This document shows, piece after piece, positions 3,985 through 37,246 of a stretch of DNA of 64,000 nucleotides; the first letter of the stretch is position 1; every line of letters starts with the position of its first letter. Location: assembly GCA_041690355.1 (NCBI GenBank), contig JAWLHK010000004.1, positions 186,001 through 250,000 on the forward strand, in the 5' to 3' direction. The notes below the pieces were generated by a model. It worked only from the letters and a program-made list of their open reading frames with translations, searched no databases and was not told where the DNA came from. This stretch comes from a bacterium. Lineage in GTDB: Bacteria > J088 > JAWLBW01. Both the position numbers and the translations under genes were made by a program.

Positions 3985-5574
3985 ATGCGTGAAGTCACCC
4001 GCCTCGCTCTCGCCCTGCTGCTCGTCACTGCTTTCGCCACCCGCGCGCCCGCCGCGCTCGGCGAGAGCGAACGGTACTCAATGGTGCGCCTGAGCATGGA
4101 GTACCTCGATCAGTGGGATGCCGCCGGCGCCCGCCGGACGCTCGACGCCCTGCTCAAGGAGAGCCCCGACGACACGCTCGTGCAGTACCTGCACGCGGTC
4201 GTGCTCTTTCACGAAGGGCGCTACGAGAAGGCCGTCGAGGTCATCGACGCCATGAAAGCCATGCCGATCGTGCAGGGGGCGACGGAGATGATCGACCTCA
4301 TCCGCGCGACCCGCGACGCGACCCACGGCATGAAGGAGCTCGAGACCGAGCATTTCGTGATCGCCTGGGTTCCGGGTGCCGACGACGTCATCATCCCATA
4401 CGCCGTAGAAACGCTCGAGAAGGCCTACAAGCAGATCGGCGAGGATCTGAGCTGGCTGCCGCCCGAGAAAGTACGCGTCGAGATCTATCCCGACAGCGAT
4501 CGATTCACGGCCGTAACGACGCTGACCAAGAAAGAAATCGAGACGAGCGGCACAATCGCGCTGTGCAAATTCAATCGCCTCATGGTAACCACGCCGCGCA
4601 TGCTCGTGCGCGGGTACGCCTGGCGCGATACGCTGACGCACGAGTACGTGCACTACGTGCTCAGCCGCAAGACCAACAACCGCGTGCCCCTCTGGCTCCA
4701 TGAAGGGGTCGCCAAGTTTCAGGAAGCGCGGTGGCGCAGCAACGAGGTCGCCACGCTGTCACCGGTCTCCGAAAGCCTGCTCGCCGAGGCGCTGGCCGAG
4801 GACTATTTCATCACCATCGAGCAGATGTACCCCTCGCTCGCCAAGCTCCCCTCGAAGAAGGACACCCAGCTGGCTTTCGCGCAGGTCGAAACCATGGTCG
4901 GCTTTCTCGTGCGCAAGGGCGGCTACCCGATGCTGCTCCGGCTGATCGAGGAGCTCAGCCGCGGGATCGGCGACGACATCGCCCTGCGCCGCGCCGGCGG
5001 ATGGGCCAATGTAAAGACCTTTCACCAGGAGTGGAAGGCGTACCTCAAGGAGCGCGGCCTCAAGCAGATTCCCGGTCTCACGATTCTGAAGACCGAGCTG
5101 CGCGAAGGGGGCCCCGCAGAAGGCGAAGAGGACCGGAAGGATCTCGAGGCCGTCGCCGATCGCAAAGCGAAAGAGCATCTGCGCCTCGGCAACCTGCTGC
5201 GCGATCGCAAGCGCTATCAGGCCGCGGTCGCCGAATATACGAAGGCCCGCGAACACGCCTCGGGCTTCAATCCGGTGCTCCTGCACAAACTCGGACTCGC
5301 CCAGATGCTGGCCGGCGACCTGAAGGGGGCCGAGGCATCGCTGCTCGAAGGGCTGCGCGTCTACCCGGAATTCGGACCCGTCAACCTGCGCCTCGGCGAG
5401 GTGTACGTGCGCATGCAGGATTACCGGCGTGCCGTCGGGCCGCTCGAGACCGCGTTGGGGGTCAATCCCTTCGACCCGAACGTGCACGCACTTCTTGCCG
5501 AAACCTACCGCCGGCTGGGCCAGGACGACCTGGCCGCCCGCGAAGCGACCGCGCTCAAACAGCTCGAAAGGTAA
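3985..5574 (+). CDS. Exported TPR protein with central peptidase-MA-like (HExxH...E) domain
   Basis: Signal peptide, N- and C-terminal TPR-like helices, TLTHEYVHY and PLWLHEGVA gluzincin-like motifs; start could also be 3976. Confidence 0.8.
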   Translation: MREVTRLALALLLVTAFATRAPAALGESERYSMVRLSMEYLDQWDAAGARRTLDALLKESPDDTLVQYLHAVVLFHEGRYEKAVEVIDAMKAMPIVQGATEMIDLIRATRDATHGMKELETEHFVIAWVPGADDVIIPYAVETLEKAYKQIGEDLSWLPPEKVRVEIYPDSDRFTAVTTLTKKEIETSGTIALCKFNRLMVTTPRMLVRGYAWRDTLTHEYVHYVLSRKTNNRVPLWLHEGVAKFQEARWRSNEVATLSPVSESLLAEALAEDYFITIEQMYPSLAKLPSKKDTQLAFAQVETMVGFLVRKGGYPMLLRLIEELSRGIGDDIALRRAGGWANVKTFHQEWKAYLKERGLKQIPGLTILKTELREGGPAEGEEDRKDLEAVADRKAKEHLRLGNLLRDRKRYQAAVAEYTKAREHASGFNPVLLHKLGLAQMLAGDLKGAEASLLEGLRVYPEFGPVNLRLGEVYVRMQDYRRAVGPLETALGVNPFDPNVHALLAETYRRLGQDDLAAREATALKQLER

Positions 5575-26432: not shown

Positions 26433-28154
26433 ATGCGTAAGTCCGGCATCCTTCTTCTGCTTTCGCTCACCCTGGCGGCCGAGGCCCACGCCGATCAGTA
26501 CAGCCTCATCGGCTCGAGCGCCGAATCGGTGGCCCAGGGCGGGGCGCTCACCGCCGGTTCGGCCGGCGCCTCGGGCGCTTTCTACAACCCCGCAACGGTC
26601 GGCAAGAACAAGCTTCAGGAGTCGGAGTTCAGCTACATCTGGGCCAAGCCGGTGCTTTCGATCGACCGCGAGCGGCACTCCGAAACCGCCGAGTACATTC
26701 AGGCGGGCCCGATCCGCGACGAAGAAGATACCCGCTATGCCGAGAAGCTGTCGACCTACCACCTGATCCGCTATCAGAACCAGGTCAACAATCTGCAGGA
26801 AGACCGCGCCGAAAACGTGCCGCTCATCCGTGGCTTCAACATCGGCTTCGTCATGCCGCTTGCACGGCGCGACCGCGGTCCCAACGGTGAACTCGTACCC
26901 GCCCCCGCCTTTCTGAAGCGCCCGTTCACGCTCGGCGTGCTGGTCTACGTGCCCCAAGGTCCGATCCTGCGCCAGCGCGTCAACGCGCCTGAGACCCCGT
27001 ACTTCGTGGAGTTCGACGACCGCAGCCAGCGCCTGGTGGCCAACGCCGCCGTCAGCTACGACGTTCTTGAGAACCTGCGCCTGGGCGCCGGCGTTTCGAT
27101 GCTGGCCGACGTCAATGCAAGCCTTTCGGTGTTCGTACCCGTGCAGCTGCAGATTGAGAGCCTGATCTCCGAGATGGGCCTGCCTGCCGTCACGATTACA
27201 CCGCTGGCCGAAATTGAAATTCCGCCCGTGCTGGCTCCGACGGCAGGCCTGCAGTGGGAGCCGACCGAGTGGCTCTCCCTCGGCGCCAGCTACCGGCACC
27301 AGATCAAGACCGAAGTCAACGCCGATGCCAACATCTCGGTCTCGACGGGGCTGGCGCGGCCTACGGCAATCCCTGCAGAAATCCAGTCGAGCGCCGCTTT
27401 CACGCCGACACAGGTTGCGGGCGGCGCCCAGGTGAGCCTGCTCGACAAGCGGCTGCGCCTCTCGGCCGACGCGACCTGGTCCGAATGGTCAGAATACCGC
27501 CCGCCTGTGGCCGAGTTCCGCATCAGCAACATCCGCAGGCTCGTGAATGACATCATCGAAGGCAGCGGCGCAGAGCAATTCGCAGAGGAGCTGACCATCA
27601 ACTTTGAAGGCGTCGAAGTTCCGCTTGGCGACATCCTGGCTCTATTGCGAAAAGACGTGCCCAACAGCATTCATCAGTATTACGAGTTCGAAGGCTTTGA
27701 GGATACCGTCACACCCCGTTTCGGCGCCGCCTTCGACGTCAACGACAAGTGGACGCTCATGGCCGGGTATTACTATCGTCCGTCCATCATCAGCGACGAC
27801 GGACTCAAGATGACCCGCATCACGACGACCGACTTCGGGCTCGACGCACAGGGTAACCGCAACGTGGTCGTCGAGCGCGACGTCATCAATCACAACACCC
27901 TCGACAACGACCAGCACGGCTTCTCGCTCGGCACCAAGTTCCGCTGGGACAACATCACCTTCGGCGCGACCGCCCTGTTCATCGACCTGGTCGAGCAGAC
28001 CGTCGACAAGACCGCCGACGACGACCTGATCCCCGACGACGAAGCCGACTACAACGACGCGCCGGGCACGCAGACGACCCAGTGGGGCTATCCCGGTTAC
28101 ACCTACGGCGGCCACATCGTCGGCGGCATGGTGCAGCTCGGCTACGAATTCTGA
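26433..28154 (+). CDS. FadL/OmpP1-like outer-membrane hydrophobic-compound transporter
   Basis: Signal peptide; GSSAESVAQGGALTA...AFYNPA hatch motif; WSEWS; DTVTPRFG; C-terminal LGYEF. Confidence 0.85.
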   Translation: MRKSGILLLLSLTLAAEAHADQYSLIGSSAESVAQGGALTAGSAGASGAFYNPATVGKNKLQESEFSYIWAKPVLSIDRERHSETAEYIQAGPIRDEEDTRYAEKLSTYHLIRYQNQVNNLQEDRAENVPLIRGFNIGFVMPLARRDRGPNGELVPAPAFLKRPFTLGVLVYVPQGPILRQRVNAPETPYFVEFDDRSQRLVANAAVSYDVLENLRLGAGVSMLADVNASLSVFVPVQLQIESLISEMGLPAVTITPLAEIEIPPVLAPTAGLQWEPTEWLSLGASYRHQIKTEVNADANISVSTGLARPTAIPAEIQSSAAFTPTQVAGGAQVSLLDKRLRLSADATWSEWSEYRPPVAEFRISNIRRLVNDIIEGSGAEQFAEELTINFEGVEVPLGDILALLRKDVPNSIHQYYEFEGFEDTVTPRFGAAFDVNDKWTLMAGYYYRPSIISDDGLKMTRITTTDFGLDAQGNRNVVVERDVINHNTLDNDQHGFSLGTKFRWDNITFGATALFIDLVEQTVDKTADDDLIPDDEADYNDAPGTQTTQWGYPGYTYGGHIVGGMVQLGYEF

Positions 28155-28180: not shown

Positions 28181-28209
28181 AAGAGAGCGGGCGACCGCTC
28201 TTTTTTTTT
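28181..28209. terminator. Rho-independent terminator between convergent genes (possibly bidirectional)
   Basis: AGAGCGG-GCGA-CCGCTCT with T9 on the + side and AAGAAG on the left. Confidence 0.9.
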
Positions 28210-28219
28210 AATGCGGAAC

Positions 28220-28912
28220 TCAGCGCACGTCGCCGTACCAGCGGGCGAGCCGCTGCGGAGAGACCCCCAACCGGTACAGGAGCGGAAAGACGTTGACCGC
28301 GATCGTAAAGGCAAGCGGACGCGCCAGAAAGCGCCGTCCCGAGACCTCGACGGTGGCCGGCACGGTCTGCACACGGCCCCAGGCCTTCATGCGCCGTGAA
28401 AACTCAAGATCCTCCATGAGCGGCTGGTCGGGAAAGCCGTCCATGGCGTCGAAGGTCTGGCGGCGCACGAAAATCGCCTGATCGCCGTAGGGCACCATGG
28501 TGTAGCGAGAACGCAGGTCGGCCAGAAACAGCAGCGGAGTCAGCCTGCTCGCCCCCGCGTCGCAGACCGTGCGGATGCGAAAGGCCCCGCCGACGACCGC
28601 CGGATCACGCAACGCGGCGCGCACGCGGGAGAAGGCGTCGGCGGGCAGCCGGCAGTCTGCATGCAGAAAGAGCAGAATCTCGCCGGTACTCTCTCGGGCG
28701 CCGAGGTTCATCTGGCGCGCCCGTCCCCGCCGGCCGGGGCCCGCATCGATGAGATTGACGGCGGGAAACTCGCGCACGCGGTCGGGCGTTCCATCGGTGC
28801 TTCCGCCATCGACGACGACCACCTCGTCGGCTGCGAGCGCGCGCAGCTCTTCGAGCCGCGAACCGATGCGCGCCGATTCGTTGAGCGTCGGGATGATGAC
28901 CGAGATCCGCAT
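28220..28912 (-). CDS. GT2 glycosyltransferase, TIGR04283-like (arsenosugar-biosynthesis-associated family)
   Basis: ISVIIPTLNE, VVDGGSTDGT, GRARQMNLGA, LLFLHADC, PYGDQAIFVRR, GFPDQPLMEDLEFSRR, VSGRRF motifs. Confidence 0.88.
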   Translation of the reverse strand: MRISVIIPTLNESARIGSRLEELRALAADEVVVVDGGSTDGTPDRVREFPAVNLIDAGPGRRGRARQMNLGARESTGEILLFLHADCRLPADAFSRVRAALRDPAVVGGAFRIRTVCDAGASRLTPLLFLADLRSRYTMVPYGDQAIFVRRQTFDAMDGFPDQPLMEDLEFSRRMKAWGRVQTVPATVEVSGRRFLARPLAFTIAVNVFPLLYRLGVSPQRLARWYGDVR

Positions 28913-28918
28913 GGGGGC

Positions 28919-29650
28919 CTATTCGACGGGGGCGCCGGGAACGGCGTCCCGCGCAGGCATGTCCGCGCGCAGCCGGCGTTCGAGCGCCCGCCGTGCCGCG
29001 CGCGCGAGAAGCCCCGTGGCCGCAAGCGTCGCGACGAGACCGCCCCAGAACAGAATCCGGCTCGCCGCGCCGCCGTCGGGCCGATCGGCAAGCAGGCGGG
29101 CCACGTCGGTCACGAGCGAGCCGAGGTAGATGTAAAGGAACGTTCCGGGGAGCATGCCCACGAACGAAGCCAGCACGTAGGCGCCGGTGCGCATGGGGGT
29201 CAGGGCCACGGCGTAGTTGAGCAGGTTGAAGGGAACGAGCGGGCTCAGCCGCAACAGCAGCAGAATGCGAAAGCCGTCGGCGCGAATGGCGTCTTCGATG
29301 GCGCCGAGCAGGGGCCGGCTCGCCACGCGCGCCGCAAGCCGCCGGCTCCCCAGTGCGCGGCCGATCAGAAACGCGCACGTTGCGGCAAGCACGCTCACGG
29401 GCGAAACGAGCAGCACGCCGTAACCCAGACCCCAGACGAAGCCGGCCCCCAGGGTCAGGATCGAGGCCGGCAGCAGGAGCACGGTGCTCGCCACGTACAC
29501 GAGGGCGAAGACGAGAACCCCCGCGGGCCCCGCCCCGCGAATCCAATCGACAAGGGCGAGAAGCGATTCGCCCACCGGCAGCAGCCGCGATGCGGCGACG
29601 ACGGCCACGGCCGCCGCAGCCAGAAGTCCGATGCGCAATGCGCGGCTCAT
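28919..29650 (-). CDS. TVP38/TMEM64 (DedA, SNARE-associated) membrane protein
   Basis: LLLPASILTLGAGFVWG, LLLRLSPLVPFNLLNY, GMLPGTFLYIYLG; ATGA overlap with upstream fusion gene. Confidence 0.92.
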   Translation of the reverse strand: MSRALRIGLLAAAAVAVVAASRLLPVGESLLALVDWIRGAGPAGVLVFALVYVASTVLLLPASILTLGAGFVWGLGYGVLLVSPVSVLAATCAFLIGRALGSRRLAARVASRPLLGAIEDAIRADGFRILLLLRLSPLVPFNLLNYAVALTPMRTGAYVLASFVGMLPGTFLYIYLGSLVTDVARLLADRPDGGAASRILFWGGLVATLAATGLLARAARRALERRLRADMPARDAVPGAPVE

Positions 29651-30927
29651 GCGGCCTGCGCCGCTTGCAGCCGGCGGTGCAGGATCGCCTGGAGGCGAAT
29701 CCGGCCGGCCGTATCGATGAGGGGCGGCTGGGTCATGAGCGCCACGTCGAGGTTTCTGCGGCAGGCGCAGGGGGCTGCCGGAGCGACATGCTCGGCCACA
29801 TGCGTGACGATGCGCCGGCCCTTGTCGACGTTCGCGCGAAGCACGGTCATGATGTCGTCGACATTCGCTTCGCGGGTCGCCGGGCGCCAGCAGTCATAAT
29901 CGGTCGGCAGCGCCAGGGTGGCATAGCAGATCTCGGCCTCACGGGCGAGCCGGGCCTCGGGATGGTTCGTCATGCCTACCAGATCGGCCCCCCACTGGCG
30001 GAACAGGTCGGATTCGGCGCGGGTAGAAAACTGCGGTCCCTCGATACAGACGTAGGTCCCCGCGGCGTGTACGCGGCCCGGTTCGGTCCGGGCCCCGTCG
30101 GCGATACTGTCGGCAAGATGGCCGCAGACGGGCTCGGCGAGGCTGCAGTGCGCGACCACCCCCGAACCGAAGAAGGTCGCCGGCCGGCTCACGGTGCGGT
30201 CGATGAACTGCCGCGGGGTGACGATGTCGCCGGGGGCGATCTCTTCGCGCAACGAGCCCACGGCCGAAATCGAAATGACCCGCGTGACCCCCAGGCGCTT
30301 GAAGCCGTAGAAGTTGGCGCGGGAGTTGACCTCGTAGGGGAGCAGGCGGTGCCCCCGGCCGTGCCGCGCGAGAAAGACGACCCGCCGGCCGTGCAGACGC
30401 CCGACGAGATAGGCGTCAGAGGGGCGCCCGAACGGGGTGTCGACGTGAATCTGCGTTACCGCTTCGAGACCCGGCAGATCGTAGAAGCCCGATCCGCCCA
30501 GAAAACCGAGCGCGGGCTCGGGAGCGAATTCCGCCGACAGCGCGTCGATCCGTTCCACCAGGGCATCGCGCACCGACTGGAAAGCCGGAAACGACTCCGG
30601 CCCCGGCACGCGCGCCGGATCGGCGAACCCCCAGTGCCGGACGGCGACGCCCGGCAGGGAGGGGCAGGCCGCCGCCGCCTCGTCGCAGAGCGTGATCACG
30701 AGCCCGACCTGATCGAGGGGAATGTCGTTCAGGTGCTTCGAGTCATAGTCGGAGATGTCGACATCGACTTCGGCGAGGGCCTGCACGGCGCGCGGATCGA
30801 GCCCGCGGGGCCGGGTGCCGGCGCTCCACACCGGAATGTCGGGCGCGAGAAACCGCCGCGCTATCCCTTCGGCCATCTGGCTGCGGGCGGCGTTGGCAGT
30901 GCAGAGAAAGAGAACACCTTTGCGCAT
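29647..30927 (-). CDS. Fusion: thioredoxin-type arsenate reductase ArsC (aa 1-~130) plus S-methyl-5'-thioadenosine phosphorylase (aa ~140-426)
   Basis: ArsC: LFLCTANAARSQMAEG, SAGT, ITLCDEAAAACP, HWGFADPA. MTAP: GFLGGSG, TPFGRPS, FLARHG, SAVGSL, QFIDRT, EGPQFSTRAES, GMT..PEA.LAREAEICY, TDYDCW. Single frame, no Met in the linker. Confidence 0.92.
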   Translation of the reverse strand: MRKGVLFLCTANAARSQMAEGIARRFLAPDIPVWSAGTRPRGLDPRAVQALAEVDVDISDYDSKHLNDIPLDQVGLVITLCDEAAAACPSLPGVAVRHWGFADPARVPGPESFPAFQSVRDALVERIDALSAEFAPEPALGFLGGSGFYDLPGLEAVTQIHVDTPFGRPSDAYLVGRLHGRRVVFLARHGRGHRLLPYEVNSRANFYGFKRLGVTRVISISAVGSLREEIAPGDIVTPRQFIDRTVSRPATFFGSGVVAHCSLAEPVCGHLADSIADGARTEPGRVHAAGTYVCIEGPQFSTRAESDLFRQWGADLVGMTNHPEARLAREAEICYATLALPTDYDCWRPATREANVDDIMTVLRANVDKGRRIVTHVAEHVAPAAPCACRRNLDVALMTQPPLIDTAGRIRLQAILHRRLQAAQAA

Positions 30928-30936
30928 GGGAGAACC

Positions 30937-31755
30937 TCAAGGGCGGTGCCGCTCGTTGAGCGACCAGTCGTAATCCAGAAATCGTACGGTCAGTTCGGGT
31001 TCGGTAACTCGCGAAGCGGCGTCCGAAGATAGATGGCGGACGACGAAGGCCGACACCGAGCCGTCCGAACGTTCAAAGTCGTCGGCAAACCACTTGAAAA
31101 TCGCCGACAGATGCAGCGTGTGGGTCTGCTCATCGTAGCGGCTCCCCTTCGCGGCGGCGAGGTAGCGCCGGGTCGCGGTGTCGAGACGGGTGTCGAGCGT
31201 ATCCCCCCGCCAGGCCTCGCCCGACAGATCGGGGCAGCCGACGGCGGCGCAGACGAGCGCGAAGTGGATGCGCGGTTCCCGGTAGCGTTTGCGCAGAATC
31301 CGATGCTCGATGTGATCGAGGCTGAACTCCGCGTCGCCGTTATCTACAAGGCGCGAACGGATGAAGTCGCGCCGGAACGCGGCGTGCGGCAGCCAGCCGA
31401 TCACGCGGATGCTCGCAATCGGATATTCGGCCACGACGAGCGCGACGGTGGCGGCATTGTACAGGTTGATCCAGTAGGCGATCTGCTCAGGCTCGCTCCA
31501 CGTCGCATACGCATCAGGACAGGCGGCGCCGAGGGCCGCCAGATAGCCCTCGAGGCGGGCGCGTGCCTCCGCGTCGGCGTGGAGGCGTCGATAGTCGACG
31601 CGCCCGTCGGCTACGAACTCGCCGAGAAAGGCCGTCCAGGCGGCATGGCTGTGGTCGAAGGGCGCGCACGTCTCTTCTACGGCAGCTGCGGCCGGGGCCG
31701 GCGCGGTCACGGCGGAAATGCACGGGAACAGCAGGAGTAGAAGACGGGCGCGCAT
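30937..31755 (-). CDS. DUF547 domain exported protein
   Basis: Signal peptide; DGRVDY, IAYWINLYNA, SLDHIEHRILR, EPRIHFALVCAAVGCPDL, LSAIFKWFADDF, DYDWSLN. Confidence 0.92.
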   Translation of the reverse strand: MRARLLLLLFPCISAVTAPAPAAAAVEETCAPFDHSHAAWTAFLGEFVADGRVDYRRLHADAEARARLEGYLAALGAACPDAYATWSEPEQIAYWINLYNAATVALVVAEYPIASIRVIGWLPHAAFRRDFIRSRLVDNGDAEFSLDHIEHRILRKRYREPRIHFALVCAAVGCPDLSGEAWRGDTLDTRLDTATRRYLAAAKGSRYDEQTHTLHLSAIFKWFADDFERSDGSVSAFVVRHLSSDAASRVTEPELTVRFLDYDWSLNERHRP

Positions 31756-31763
31756 GTCTGGAC

Positions 31764-31840
31764 ATGATAACGGGTTTGCGCCCCCCCTGTCGCGAAACCT
31801 GCGCCCCGTTCGGCTCTGCTTGCTTCCGGCAGAGCGGAAC
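31764..31840 (-). promoter_or_regulatory. Candidate near-leaderless promoter and upstream 12-9-12 inverted repeat for the DUF547/ArsC-MTAP operon
   Basis: Minus strand GCGACA-18-TATCAT (31769-31764), 8 nt before ATG 31755; GTTCGGCTCTGC-N9-GCAGAGCGGAAC at 31808-31840 (11/12 match). Confidence 0.45.
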
Positions 31841-31874
31841 CCCGGGCGGCGATGCGTTACACTGTTCTGTCACC

Positions 31875-33530: not shown

Positions 33531-34181
33531 GTGACGACACGCAAAGCGACCCGCTCCGGCGCCGAGACCCGCAGGCGCATCCTGAATGCCGCCGAGGAGC
33601 TCTTCGTGCGTTACGGCTACGAGGGTACGCGCATGGATCAGATCGCCGAGGCGGCCGGGGTCGAAAAGGCGAACATCTATTACTACTTCGACGGCAAGGA
33701 AAGCCTCTACCAGGCGCTCATCGGCAGCATCATGGACGCGCTCGTCCACGAGATCCGCGACTTCGTGCTCCAGCCCGCCGATTCGCCGTGGGTGCAGCTC
33801 GATACCTTTCTCGATTTCTTCTTCACGATGGTCGAGCGTTACCAGGGGCTCGTCGGACTCGTGGTCGGCGAGATGCAGCATCCGCCGCGCGACCAGGAGG
33901 GCGAATCGCCGCTGCTCGCGATCATGCTGCAGATCCAGTCCGTGGCCGGCCAGCTGCTCGAAGACGGTATGCGCCAGGGGCACTTCCGCCGCCAGGATCC
34001 GGCGCAGCTGCTGCTGAGCCTCGAGGGGGCGCTCTTCTACTCCTTTCTGCTCCCCGAAGAACGCATGCAGGCGCTGCTGGGCGAGCCGCGGTTCAGCCCC
34101 GAGGGACTCGCGCGGCGGCGGGAGCACCTGCGCGGCCTGCTGCGCATGATGCTCGGCCACGAAGATCAGCCGGCCCGCTGA
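33531..34181 (+). CDS. TetR/AcrR family transcriptional regulator
   Basis: RILNAAEELF...GYEGTRMDQIAEAAGVEKANIYYYFDGKESLY HTH. Confidence 0.93.
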   Translation: MTTRKATRSGAETRRRILNAAEELFVRYGYEGTRMDQIAEAAGVEKANIYYYFDGKESLYQALIGSIMDALVHEIRDFVLQPADSPWVQLDTFLDFFFTMVERYQGLVGLVVGEMQHPPRDQEGESPLLAIMLQIQSVAGQLLEDGMRQGHFRRQDPAQLLLSLEGALFYSFLLPEERMQALLGEPRFSPEGLARRREHLRGLLRMMLGHEDQPAR

Positions 34182-34265
34182 GGAGACACCCGGTTTGCAG
34201 AGCGCCTTGACGCTTTGCGTCGACATCCCGGACTGCGTTATTCTGTGGGCAAGCGAGGAGAACGC

Positions 34266-35108
34266 ATGCTGATCCAGCCGACGCACGAGTTTTCCTGGGA
34301 TCGGGTTTTCCGCCCCGGGGTCATGGCGCGCCTGCTCACCTTTCTGGGGCTGCGCAAGGAAGCGATCATCCGCTTTCTGAATTATCCCCAGTTCGCCGTC
34401 GTTATCCTGCTGCTCGTCCCCTACCTGATTCTTGCGCCGGTGGTCACCCTGACCCTGGGGCGGCGCGCCGACTGGGCGGTGCAGAAAGTCTTCGGGTGGA
34501 TGTGGCTGGCCGTCTTCGGCATCTACCGCCGCGTGTGGATTCACCCGGAGATCAGGCGGGACGCACAGTACGTCTACATGGCCGAGCACTTCTCGCTTCA
34601 CGACGTTCCGCTCTACGGTTCGACCTGGCCCACCGTGACCGCGGCGCTGAGCGCGAAAGAATACGCCAACGTGCCGATGTACGGCTGGGTCATCCGCGCC
34701 GCCGGCACCCAGTTCATCGAGCGCCGCGACACCCGCGAGGCGATCGCCGACCTTCACGCCCTGCGCGACAGGATGGGGCCCGACGGCCTGTCGGTGCTTG
34801 TCGTGCCCACCGGAACGCGCGCCGAGAACGCCCAGCTGCTCCCCTTCAAGAAAGGGGTCTTCTTTTTTTCCACCGAGCTGAAGAAGCCCATCGTTCCTCT
34901 CTGTCTCGTGGGGCTCGAACATCTGCGCGTGGGCAAGAATTACTGCCGCCCGGGACGCGTCGACGTCGTCTACGGGCAGCCCATCCGCCCCGAAGACCAC
35001 CCCGAAGCCTTCGCTTCACCCGAGGCCCTGCGCGATCTCGTACGCGCCCGCATGCTCGACGAGGGCCGCGAGCTGCGCCGGCAGCGTCAGCTGCTGCTCC
35101 GCAATTGA
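34266..35108 (+). CDS. Lysophospholipid acyltransferase (PlsC-like)
   Basis: HFSLHD (HxxxxD), FIERR, VPTGTR (usually PEGTR), LLPFKKGVF, PIVP; GAGGAG RBS. Confidence 0.85.
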   Translation: MLIQPTHEFSWDRVFRPGVMARLLTFLGLRKEAIIRFLNYPQFAVVILLLVPYLILAPVVTLTLGRRADWAVQKVFGWMWLAVFGIYRRVWIHPEIRRDAQYVYMAEHFSLHDVPLYGSTWPTVTAALSAKEYANVPMYGWVIRAAGTQFIERRDTREAIADLHALRDRMGPDGLSVLVVPTGTRAENAQLLPFKKGVFFFSTELKKPIVPLCLVGLEHLRVGKNYCRPGRVDVVYGQPIRPEDHPEAFASPEALRDLVRARMLDEGRELRRQRQLLLRN

Positions 35109-35111
35109 GCG

Positions 35112-35131
35112 GGCCCCGGCTCACCGGGGCC
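35112..35131. repeat. Perfect 8-bp hairpin without U-tract
   Basis: GGCCCCGG-CTCA-CCGGGGCC right after the plsC-like stop. Confidence 0.6.
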
Positions 35132-35272
35132 GGACGCCTCACCTTACCTACCGCGTGGTAGAATACGCTTGACTTCGCGGGGCATACGGGATGATAATGC
35201 TCCCACTGAACGGGCGCTTTTCCAGGCGCCACTGCCTCCTTGTCTCCGCATAACGCTACCCAGGTGAATGCC

Positions 35273-37246
35273 ATGATCGGTGCCGCACAACCGCTTCGCA
35301 ACCCGGCCCGCCACGTTGCCGACCAGTCTCGCAACCTGCCGGATCTGTTCCTCAACCGCGTCCGTGCCACCCCGCAGCGCGTGGCCTACAAGCACAAGGA
35401 GCGCGGCCGCTGGATCGACACGACCTGGCACGGCTTTCACGACCAGTCGTCGCGCGTCGCCTCCTGGCTGATCACCAGGGGCATTCAAGCCGGTGACAAA
35501 GTCTGCGTGGTCGGAAGCACCCGCCCCGAATGGGTGCTCTGCGACATGGGCGGGCAGCTTGCGGGCGCAGTGACCATCGGCGCCTATCCGACTTCGTCAC
35601 CCGACCAGCTCGCTTACATCGTCGAGCATTCCGAGTCGAAAATCGTCTTCGTCGAGGGCAAGGAAGAAATCGCCAAGATTCTGGAGATCAAGGATCGCAT
35701 CCCCGGCGTGCAATGCGTCGTCGTCTGGCGCCGAGACGCGCTGGGCCCCGAGCTCGCCGGCAATGCGCTCTTCGCCGTATTCGAAGACGTGCTCGACACT
35801 TCGGCCGACCCCAAGGCCATCGCCGAACGGGTCGATGCCGTCAAGCCCGATGACACGGCCATCATCGTCTACACGAGCGGCACGACGGGGCCGCCGAAGG
35901 GGGCCATGATCTCGCAGGGAAACATCATCTCGTATATCCGGGGCACCCAGGGCCTGGTTCCCTTCGACGCCGACGACATCAGCCTGAACTTTCTGCCCAT
36001 GGCGCACGTGGCCGAGCGCATCGCCGGCTTCTACGCCCGCATCTCGGCCGGCATCACGGCCGCCTATGCGTCGAGCGTGCCCGCCGTGCTCGAAGAGGTG
36101 AAGGAGGTGCGCCCGACGGTCTTCGGGAGCGTGCCCCGTATTTTCGAAAAGGCGTACGCCAAGATGAAGGGCGAGGTAGCCAAGGCGCCCGCGGGCAAGC
36201 AGAAGGTGTTCGCGAAAGCCGAGGCGGTGGGCCGCGAGGTCGTCCGCCACTGGCAGCGCGGCGAAAAGGTTCCGCTCGGCCTCGCCATCCAGTACAAGCT
36301 CTTCGACAAGCTGGTCTTCTCCAAGATCCGCGAGGTCTTCGGCGGCCGCGTACGCAACTTTCTTACCGGTGCGGCGCCGATCTCCTACGAGATTCTCGAA
36401 TTCTTCTGGGCCGCCGGCTTCCCCATCTACGAAGTGTACGGCATGACCGAAGCCACCGTGATCACGCACGGCAACCGGCCCGGCGACGTGCGCCTCGGAA
36501 CAGTCGGGAAGGCGATCGCCCCGATGGTCGAAGAGAAGCTGGCCGACGACGGCGAAATCCTCATCCGCGGCGCGACGGTTTTCAAGGGTTACTACAAGAA
36601 CCCCGAAGCGACCGCCGAGGCCATCGACAAGGACGGCTGGCTGCACACCGGCGACATCGGCCGGCGCGAACCCGACGGCTCGCTGCGCATCGTCGACCGC
36701 AAGAAGCACATCATCATCACGGCGGGCGGCAAGAACATTACGCCGGCCAACATCGAGCAGGACATCAAAGGACAGGATGCGCTCATCAGCAACGTGCACG
36801 CGCACGGCGATCGGCGCGCCTACCTGACTGCGCTCGTGACCATTCACCCCATGGAGGCCATCGAGTGGGCGCGCGCCAATAACCTGCTCACCGACAACGC
36901 GCTGGCCGATCGGCTCGTCAAGGCGCTGATGGAGAACCCGCTGGCCCGCCCCGAAGGGCTCGACGGGGTCATGCAGACGGTCACCGAACGGCCCGAGATC
37001 CGCTCGCGCATCGCGGCGGCCGTGCAACGTGCGAACCGCTCGCTGTCGCGGGTCGAAACGATCAAGAAGGTCTACGTGCTCGAGCGTGACTTCAGCCTCG
37101 AAGAAGATGAAATCACGCCGACGATGAAGATCAAGCGCAAGAACGTCGAGAAGAAGTTCACCGCGCTTTTCGATCGTCTCTACGAGGACAAGGCGTTCGG
37201 GATCGTCATCGAGGACGAGAACAAAGGGGCGGCGGTCTCGATCTGA
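35273..37246 (+). CDS. Long-chain acyl-CoA synthetase (AMP-dependent ligase)
   Basis: IVYTSGTTGPPKG, FLPMAHVAER, EVYGMTE, GWLHTGDIG, DRKKHIIITAGGKNI; candidate promoter TTGACT-18-GATAAT at 35169-35198. Confidence 0.93.
   Translation: MIGAAQPLRNPARHVADQSRNLPDLFLNRVRATPQRVAYKHKERGRWIDTTWHGFHDQSSRVASWLITRGIQAGDKVCVVGSTRPEWVLCDMGGQLAGAVTIGAYPTSSPDQLAYIVEHSESKIVFVEGKEEIAKILEIKDRIPGVQCVVVWRRDALGPELAGNALFAVFEDVLDTSADPKAIAERVDAVKPDDTAIIVYTSGTTGPPKGAMISQGNIISYIRGTQGLVPFDADDISLNFLPMAHVAERIAGFYARISAGITAAYASSVPAVLEEVKEVRPTVFGSVPRIFEKAYAKMKGEVAKAPAGKQKVFAKAEAVGREVVRHWQRGEKVPLGLAIQYKLFDKLVFSKIREVFGGRVRNFLTGAAPISYEILEFFWAAGFPIYEVYGMTEATVITHGNRPGDVRLGTVGKAIAPMVEEKLADDGEILIRGATVFKGYYKNPEATAEAIDKDGWLHTGDIGRREPDGSLRIVDRKKHIIITAGGKNITPANIEQDIKGQDALISNVHAHGDRRAYLTALVTIHPMEAIEWARANNLLTDNALADRLVKALMENPLARPEGLDGVMQTVTERPEIRSRIAAAVQRANRSLSRVETIKKVYVLERDFSLEEDEITPTMKIKRKNVEKKFTALFDRLYEDKAFGIVIEDENKGAAVSI

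Follow-up and report, generated by a model that had tools for sequence, protein, structure and literature searches.

A candidate second half of a split arsenosugar biosynthesis cluster, carrying an ArsC-like::MTAP fusion, in a bacterial genome

In algae and seafood, organic arsenic occurs mainly as arsenosugars and arsenosugar lipids. To our knowledge, only the first two enzymes of the arsenosugar pathway, ArsM and ArsS, have been assigned; the ArsM/ArsS oxo-arsenosugar pathway of cyanobacteria was reportedly described by Xue et al. in 2019 and by Cheng et al. in 2021. In this work, we analyze a window of 64,000 nucleotides (positions 186,001 to 250,000 of contig JAWLHK010000004.1, here C4; other contigs, loci and genomes are likewise given our own C, L and G numbers) that holds an operon of four minus-strand genes. 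In order, they encode a DUF547 protein, a fusion of a low-molecular-weight phosphatase (LMWP) type ArsC-like domain with an MTAP domain, a VTT/DedA-like membrane protein and a family 2 glycosyltransferase (GT2) of the TIGR04283 family. The genome shares with the cyanobacterial pathway an ArsS above the family cut-off and an ArsM-like methyltransferase, and it holds TIGR04282 and TIGR04283, two families whose NCBI names already tie them to arsenosugars. It differs in that its genes are spread over three contigs, with the ArsC-like::MTAP fusion among them. Judging from gene content and arrangement, we hold it moderately probable that the genome has an ArsS-dependent cluster for the biosynthesis of arsenosugars (arsenoribosides), split in two, with the operon as its second half; in it, the MTAP domain would phosphorolyse DDMAA (5'-deoxy-5'-dimethylarsinoyl-adenosine) and so feed TIGR04282 and TIGR04283.

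This reading is carried above all by clusters found in metagenome contigs. Thirty-six loci were chosen solely because their DNA matched a pattern for P-A-x-G-x-x-GGSGFY, the motif at the fusion junction, blind to the neighboring genes, and in 20 of them tblastn placed ArsS immediately upstream of an MTAP of this subfamily, whether fused or not. Among these tight ArsS-MTAP pairs are some whose coding regions overlap or abut; in L221, the fusion starts where ArsS ends. Three clusters (L210, L212 and L221) share the order DUF547, ArsS, ArsC::MTAP, PHO4/PiT transporter, VTT, MerA-like FAD disulfide reductase (PRK06370.1-3, 780 bits), TIGR04282 and TIGR04283, with NCBIfam scores in L221 of 433.7 bits for ArsS, 309.2 for ArsC::MTAP, 174.8 for TIGR04282 and 211.4 for TIGR04283. 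A divergent ArsM is added in L186 and L209, where the N-terminal domain of the fusion is degenerate. The MTAP is unfused in L192 and L194 (ArsS, MTAP, reductase, TIGR04282, glycosyltransferase) and in L201 (ArsS, MTAP, ArsM-like gene, MerA-like reductase). As a control, we used 80 ordinary unfused MTAP loci (1.21 Mb) from a contig scan whose patterns were generic MTAP motifs, and found no pathway gene in any of the 80. By its gene content, the window operon is an L221-type cluster that lacks ArsS, PiT, the reductase and TIGR04282, the pair of ArsS and TIGR04282 apparently having been relocated together.

The MTAP domains of these loci also group together. A FastTree tree was built from 158 MTAP domains, after dropping every second unfused database protein (85 to 42), control loci shorter than 12 kb or with short matches (80 to 53) and seven metagenome loci with short matches. 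A single clade, with 98 rows and a support of 98, contains the window protein, the other 33 fused proteins, all 18 ArsS-linked rows and the 42 unfused database proteins, and all 53 control MTAPs fall outside it. Among the 22 clade rows with a visible gene context, ArsS is adjacent in 18 and other pathway genes are present on truncated contigs in two (L193 and L206); the contig of L214 is too short to tell, and L219 has none. A protein search recovered the same LMWPc-MTAP architecture in about thirty proteins from metagenomes or metagenome-assembled genomes (MAGs), at 49-63% identity over the full length. One of these is labelled Sandaracinaceae; the labels of the nearest unfused MTAPs are Kofleriaceae, Myxococcota or Deltaproteobacteria. 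A further search (401 genomes, phylum of a 'Myxococcales' MAG, E<=1e-110) gave no match at a threshold that was perhaps too strict.

MTAP-type phosphorylases are known from the salvage of 5'-deoxyadenosine and methylthioadenosine (MTA), in methionine salvage and in the dihydroxyacetone phosphate shunt. The MTAP half of the fusion, strongly conserved in the fusion-family alignment, resembles the known enzymes closely: it matches TIGR01694 over its full length and above the equivalog cut-off (table 1), is recognized by PNP_UDP_1 with 139 bits, and aligns end to end with the solved MTAPs (4glf, 1wta, 1cb0), retaining the phosphate, ribose and adenine residues. Taking the human ligand and catalytic positions to be Thr18, Arg60, His61, His65, Thr93, Met196, Thr197, Asp220 and Asp222, the alignment to 1cb0 reads, in register, Ser at Thr18, R-H, H, Ser at Thr93, M-T and D-x-D. 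The differences from known MTAPs are the N-terminal ArsC-like domain, the position of clade members directly beside ArsS, and a proposed substrate that would carry a dimethylarsinoyl group in place of methylthio. The proposed first step is the one used in MTA and 5'-deoxyadenosine salvage, phosphorolysis of a 5'-modified 5'-deoxyadenosine to a ribose-1-phosphate, but no MtnA isomerase was found in the genome, and the proposed next users of the sugar phosphate are a nucleotidyltransferase-like protein and a glycosyltransferase.

The N-terminal domain is best compared with the thioredoxin-coupled ArsC of Staphylococcus aureus pI258 and Bacillus subtilis, which has the low-molecular-weight protein tyrosine phosphatase fold (1jl3, 1ljl); the B. 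subtilis and S. aureus enzymes are its top PDB matches. Cys9, Arg15, Cys81, Cys88 and Asp103 align with Cys10, Arg16, Cys82, Cys89 and Asp105 of B. subtilis ArsC, such that the CX5R P-loop, the equivalents of the Cys82/Cys89 redox pair and that of Asp105 are all kept in the window protein. Unlike those enzymes, the domain is fused to a phosphorylase, is often degenerate among the relatives of the fusion, and scores below the cut-off of the pI258-type model (TIGR02691, 112.6 against 174.3 bits), for which reason we label it an ArsC-like LMWP domain and not a member of TIGR02691. A phosphatase role, namely dephosphorylation of a sugar-1-phosphate, was considered and ranked below arsenate reduction because the ArsC-specific pair Cys81/Cys88 is present. 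The preliminary description of this DNA had taken the fused arsenic enzyme as independent support for an arsenic function of the whole gene set. The link of MTAP to the arsenic pathway does have independent comparative support, from the ArsS directly upstream in 20 of 36 loci, but the ArsC domain itself is a weaker witness, since its nucleophilic Cys is often lost and unfused MTAPs are just as much linked to ArsS.

Whole-genome searches with profile models put the operon into a wider arsenic context. ArsS (TIGR04167, 442.1 bits against a cut-off of 300) lies on contig C1 and is directly adjoined by TIGR04282 (153.7 bits, cut-off 134), the pair being flanked by mgtE, topA and a KefC-like gene. 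An ArsM-like methyltransferase, matching in type the ArsM found after ArsS and MTAP in L201, is located on C17, scoring 197 bits with an arsenite methyltransferase subfamily model, under its cut-off of 263. A classical arsR-acr3-arsC set occupies C7, and its separate ArsC is 40% identical to the fused ArsC-like domain. No match of ArsS, TIGR04282 or ArsM in these searches fell on C4, which agrees with the earlier statement that the three are absent from the window, and the view that the operon is not of the classical resistance type also stands: neither an ArsR regulator nor an arsenite efflux pump is among the four genes, and such a set is the one on C7. What becomes very unlikely is a stand-alone or salvage system. 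With arsS, TIGR04282, an ArsM-like gene and arsR-acr3-arsC elsewhere in the genome, the operon is a piece of a scattered arsenic toolkit and not an orphan. This genome has no complete contiguous cluster of the L221 type, ArsS and TIGR04282 being on another contig; the MerA-like reductase of the clusters has no close homologue there (best 32% identity), and no PiT match was obtained at E<1e-8.

Some further observations concern these distant genes. In the C7 set (L023, 3801-6638), a regulator of the ArsR family and an OsmC-like gene accompany an Acr3 efflux pump (451.6 bits) and the second LMWP ArsC, whose open reading frame (ORF) may extend into an ArsI/CadI-like VOC domain. On C17 (L021, 7290-9569), a ClsB-like cardiolipin synthase, a phosphatidyltransferase of the PLD family, is encoded 73 nt downstream of the ArsM-like gene; in principle, transfer of a phosphatidyl group to a glycerol arsenoriboside would be within the reach of such an enzyme. 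This pairing is absent from the related metagenome clusters viewed. The ArsS gene of the window's genome has no internal stop, and ArsS matches in G250, G010, G358 and G090 have a single in-frame TGA, as in the selenocysteine form.

We also asked how widely these genes keep company. TIGR04283 exceeds its cut-off in 88 of 401 sampled genomes. Regions of about 9.5 kb to either side were taken around 80 of the 94 such matches outside the window's genome, after removal of duplicates within a genus, of three second copies with weaker matches, of one partial match and of another at the edge of a contig, and their content was scored by tblastn with the proteins of the window's genome (E<1e-6). TIGR04282 was found in 29 of the 80 loci, VTT in 21, ArsS in 17, DUF547 in 8, ArsM-like genes in 6, and MTAP and ArsC in 1 each; where ArsS was present, VTT nearly always was as well (14 of 17). 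Unsupervised clustering of all ORFs from the 80 loci recovered these families again and added a MerA-like flavoprotein reductase, present in 13 loci. The preliminary description had named DUF547 and VTT proteins as recurrent neighbors of arsS, and the survey bears out such recurrence beside TIGR04283 and ArsS for VTT (21/80) and DUF547 (8/80), against 0/80 in the controls. The only MTAP-like match (L101) is an ordinary purine nucleoside phosphorylase outside any cluster, with tsaD between the two genes, ileS after and housekeeping genes around. In 11 of the 80 loci, one open frame of roughly 430-690 aa spans both TIGR04282 and the glycosyltransferase, which suggests that the two genes are fused or overlapping in some lineages.

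In 40 further loci centered on ArsS, DUF547 was found in 7 (directly beside ArsS), VTT in 8, the reductase in 9, PiT in 4 and MTAP in 1. The last (L236, at about 599-601 kb of G277:C1, a complete genome) has a generic MTAP 260 nt from ArsS and divergent from it, the sole such adjacency among 57 ArsS loci. PiT and the MerA-like reductase (4341-5477 and 6226-7773 in L221) are conserved in ArsS clusters; L201, L192 and, among the 80 loci around TIGR04283, 13 provide further examples. In the full clusters PiT neighbors ArsC, an arrangement that fits the entry of arsenate and its reduction. At the level of whole genomes, TIGR04283 and ArsS occurred together in 52, TIGR04283 only in 36, ArsS only in 17 and neither in 296 of the 401, an odds ratio of about 25 with a p-value that overstates the significance, since the genomes are related to one another.

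The remaining three proteins of the operon can also be placed in families. The glycosyltransferase, described beforehand as TIGR04283-like, exceeds the family cut-off over model positions 1-221 of 221, and it is the only copy in the whole genome to do so. Its closest solved relatives are a GT2 enzyme (6yv7), the glucosyl-3-phosphoglycerate synthases (GpgS) and dolichol-P-mannose synthase, which are compatible with a glycerol-type and with a lipid-phosphate acceptor alike and do not decide between the two. DedA/VTT proteins include bacterial recyclers of polyprenyl phosphate and the eukaryotic scramblases TMEM41B and VMP1. With them the window protein shares the PF09335 domain and a multi-pass membrane topology, its hydropathy profile having several hydrophobic segments; proteins of its type differ in traveling with ArsS, DUF547 and the MerA-like flavoprotein reductase. 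The DUF547 protein begins with a hydrophobic, signal-like segment (residues 5-26 by hydropathy). In an alignment with 10 homologues, E150, H151, R162, H164, C169, C174, P175, Y262 and D263 are invariant, forming the motifs Glu-His, Arg-x-His and Cys-x4-Cys-Pro. A Foldseek search with its confident AlphaFold2 model (pLDDT 82.7) found nothing in the PDB at E<=0.001, and a wide VIA-align comparison reached a best Z of 5.4, inside the noise range of the tool, with no functional lead.

The following route would unite these genes. ArsM would produce trivalent dimethylarsenic, DMAs(III), and ArsS adenosylates it to DDMAA, the adenosyl group being moved onto arsenic and not released stoichiometrically (PMC13598754). 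As DDMAA is a 5'-substituted 5'-deoxyadenosine like MTA, the MTAP domain would accept it as an MTA analogue and cleave it with phosphate, giving adenine and 5-deoxy-5-dimethylarsinoyl-alpha-D-ribose-1-phosphate. The nucleotidyltransferase-like TIGR04282 protein, which is DUF2064- and CofC-like and has a 'putative nucleotide-diphospho-sugar transferase' as its nearest solved relative, would then activate the arsenoribose-1-phosphate, and the inverting GT2 enzyme TIGR04283 would move the arsenoribose onto an acceptor as a beta-riboside. The stereochemistry fits, as the sugar product of MTAP is an alpha-1-phosphate, GT2 enzymes act with inversion, and the arsenosugars found in nature are beta-ribosides. 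The ArsC-like domain may supply As(III) from arsenate or may keep arsenate off the phosphorylase, and VTT in the membrane and DUF547 as an exported protein would act on a membrane-bound or exported product. In its most specific form, the proposal is a tentative one, and we regard it as possible but somewhat doubtful as a whole: the ArsS-linked MTAP clade would be the missing adenine remover delivering arsenoribose-1-phosphate, TIGR04282 would turn this into a nucleotide-activated arsenoribose and TIGR04283 into a beta-arsenoriboside on a glycerol or lipid acceptor, VTT would translocate the lipid-linked product across the membrane, DUF547 would act on the far side through a conserved center made of Cys-x4-Cys and Glu-His, and the fused ArsC would bar arsenate from the phosphorylase site. 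Such exclusion would avert arsenolysis, that is, the formation of an unstable sugar arsenate in place of the sugar phosphate.

Several observations weigh against the operon being half of a split arsenosugar cluster. It is not adjacent to arsS in its own genome; just 1 of the 57 ArsS loci in the broad sample has MTAP beside it; and some metagenome loci duplicate one another, leaving about 14 distinct ArsS-linked MTAP sequences, mostly from one broad lineage. With the linkage confined in this way, other producers of arsenosugars must remove adenine otherwise. Of the 28 aligned members of the fusion family with coverage of the ArsC P-loop, 10 have lost the nucleophilic Cys, among them the protein of G001, a genome of the same family (97% complete) that keeps a degenerate fusion and in which ArsS and TIGR04283 were not found. 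The last case also speaks for a different explanation, which we judge unlikely yet worth taking seriously: the fusion may be the housekeeping MTA/5'-deoxyadenosine phosphorylase of the lineage, kept near arsenosugar genes because ArsM and ArsS consume much S-adenosylmethionine and abortive radical-SAM turnover frees inhibitory 5'-deoxyadenosine, with no processing of DDMAA. All MTAP equivalog models match the domain well, and a comparison of clade with control sequences gave few clade-specific positions and no clear re-tooling of the pocket for the 5'-substituent; the discriminating positions, considered as a pocket adaptation, do not map clearly to it. The fusion is moreover the sole MTAP of the genome, and neither an MtnN nucleosidase nor MtnA was found in genome searches, so it must also serve housekeeping. 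However, ArsM yields S-adenosylhomocysteine, which is not a substrate of MTAP, clearance of by-products leaves the repeated fusion to an arsenic enzyme unexplained, and tight ArsS-MTAP adjacency was seen in 20 of the 36 metagenome loci but in none of the 80 controls. ArsS, for its part, puts the adenosyl group on arsenic without stoichiometric release (PMC13598754). Under the arsenosugar reading, the same MTAP would probably clear ordinary MTA and 5'-deoxyadenosine as well.

Another possibility is that the module of glycosyltransferase, VTT and DUF547 is not specific to arsenic and makes or remodels some other membrane glycoconjugate, or a compound related to thiols or metalloids, in which case the name 'arsenosugar' would be guilt by association. 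ArsS does not exceed its cut-off in 36 of the 88 TIGR04283-positive genomes, a count that tells against the arsenosugar reading as well; in 63 of the 80 loci around TIGR04283, ArsS is missing from the roughly 9.5 kb to either side; DUF547 is uncharacterized in the literature found and has no detected relative of solved fold; and the operon stands apart from arsS. We nonetheless consider this improbable in view of the genome-wide odds ratio, which is subject to the relatedness mentioned, of VTT in 14 of 17 ArsS-holding loci and DUF547 directly beside ArsS in 7 of the 40 further ones, and of the nearest relatives of the operon, which sit in complete ArsS clusters. It is more improbable still, to the point that we give it very little weight, that the operon salvages or catabolizes arsenosugars or arseno-nucleosides from the environment, phosphorolysis freeing adenine from imported DDMAA-like compounds. 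The operon itself does lack arsM and arsS, and a phosphorylase is a typical salvage enzyme, but biosynthetic ArsS and ArsM are present in the genome and next to the same MTAP in related clusters, the operon includes no uptake system for organoarsenicals, and the transporter of the related clusters is a PHO4/PiT carrier of phosphate (arsenate).

The layout of the operon, given in table 1, is as described before: the ORF list and the junction sequences confirm four co-directional genes separated by a 9-nt gap (TGA-GGTTCTCCC-ATG) between DUF547 and the fusion, an ATGA overlap with the VTT start on the stop of the fusion (GCATGAGC), and a 6-nt gap (TAG-GCCCCC-ATG) between VTT and the glycosyltransferase. 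The terminator claimed downstream is another matter. The stem is real, but the supposed strength is not apparent on the operon's strand, where the tail of the stem-loop (28201-28184) is weak in T (CTTCTTCG); with A9 preceding it and so poor a T tail on the minus strand, it would better serve the convergent plus-strand gene, and it is probably a bidirectional terminator. A promoter scan gave a single weak sigma-70-like match (9/12, at 31793-31764), which says nothing on function. The convergent ORF (26433-28154, plus strand, 573 aa) has a signal-like N-terminus and no NCBIfam match, and may encode an outer-membrane protein. On the other side, beside the divergent CPBP-like gene and an SDR gene, positions 33531-37246 hold genes for a TetR regulator and a PlsC-like acyltransferase, together with a long ORF that, by eye only, resembles an acyl-CoA ligase; this looks like a lipid-metabolism neighborhood.

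Table 1. Features of the operon and its borders, in coordinates of the window
Feature	Position	Strand	Evidence
DUF547 protein, 272 aa	30937..31755	-	PF04784, 87 bits (gathering score 27)
Fusion, whole ORF, 426 aa	29647-30927	-	ORF list
Fusion, N-terminal domain: LMWP-type, thioredoxin-coupled ArsC-like, residues 1-135	30523..30927	-	PF01451, 54.8 bits
Fusion, MTAP (5'-substituted 5'-deoxyadenosine phosphorylase) domain, residues 136-426	29647..30522	-	TIGR01694, 292.1 bits (equivalog cut-off 274.85)
VTT / DedA-TVP38-type integral membrane protein, 243 aa	28919..29650	-	PF09335, 83.8 bits (gathering score 33.9)
TIGR04283-family GT2, 230 aa, soluble GT-A domain	28220..28912	-	TIGR04283, 212.9 bits (cut-off 182)
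Stem-loop between convergent genes, A9 before, T-poor tail	28184..28201	.	stem AGAGCGG/CCGCTCT
Intergenic region, DUF547 start to divergent CPBP-like gene	31756..31874	.	one weak sigma-70-like match

A literature search that covered few subscription papers or supplements, so that prior mention is possible, found no paper that assigns an enzyme to the removal of adenine or to later steps, none that gives TIGR04283, DUF547 or VTT a role in arsenic metabolism, and no biochemical study of the TIGR04283 family. The families and the pathway are known; as far as we searched, the ArsC-MTAP architecture is undescribed and the ArsS-linked MTAP clade is a candidate for the open step. A phosphorylase that repeatedly comes right after ArsS, often fused to an arsenic enzyme, is a concrete candidate for adenine removal, and the sugar-1-phosphate intermediate that it implies would account for the company that ArsS keeps with a nucleotidyltransferase-like protein and an inverting glycosyltransferase. 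If this is true, the late part of the pathway could be rebuilt in vitro, and its genes could be used as markers of arsenosugar producers.

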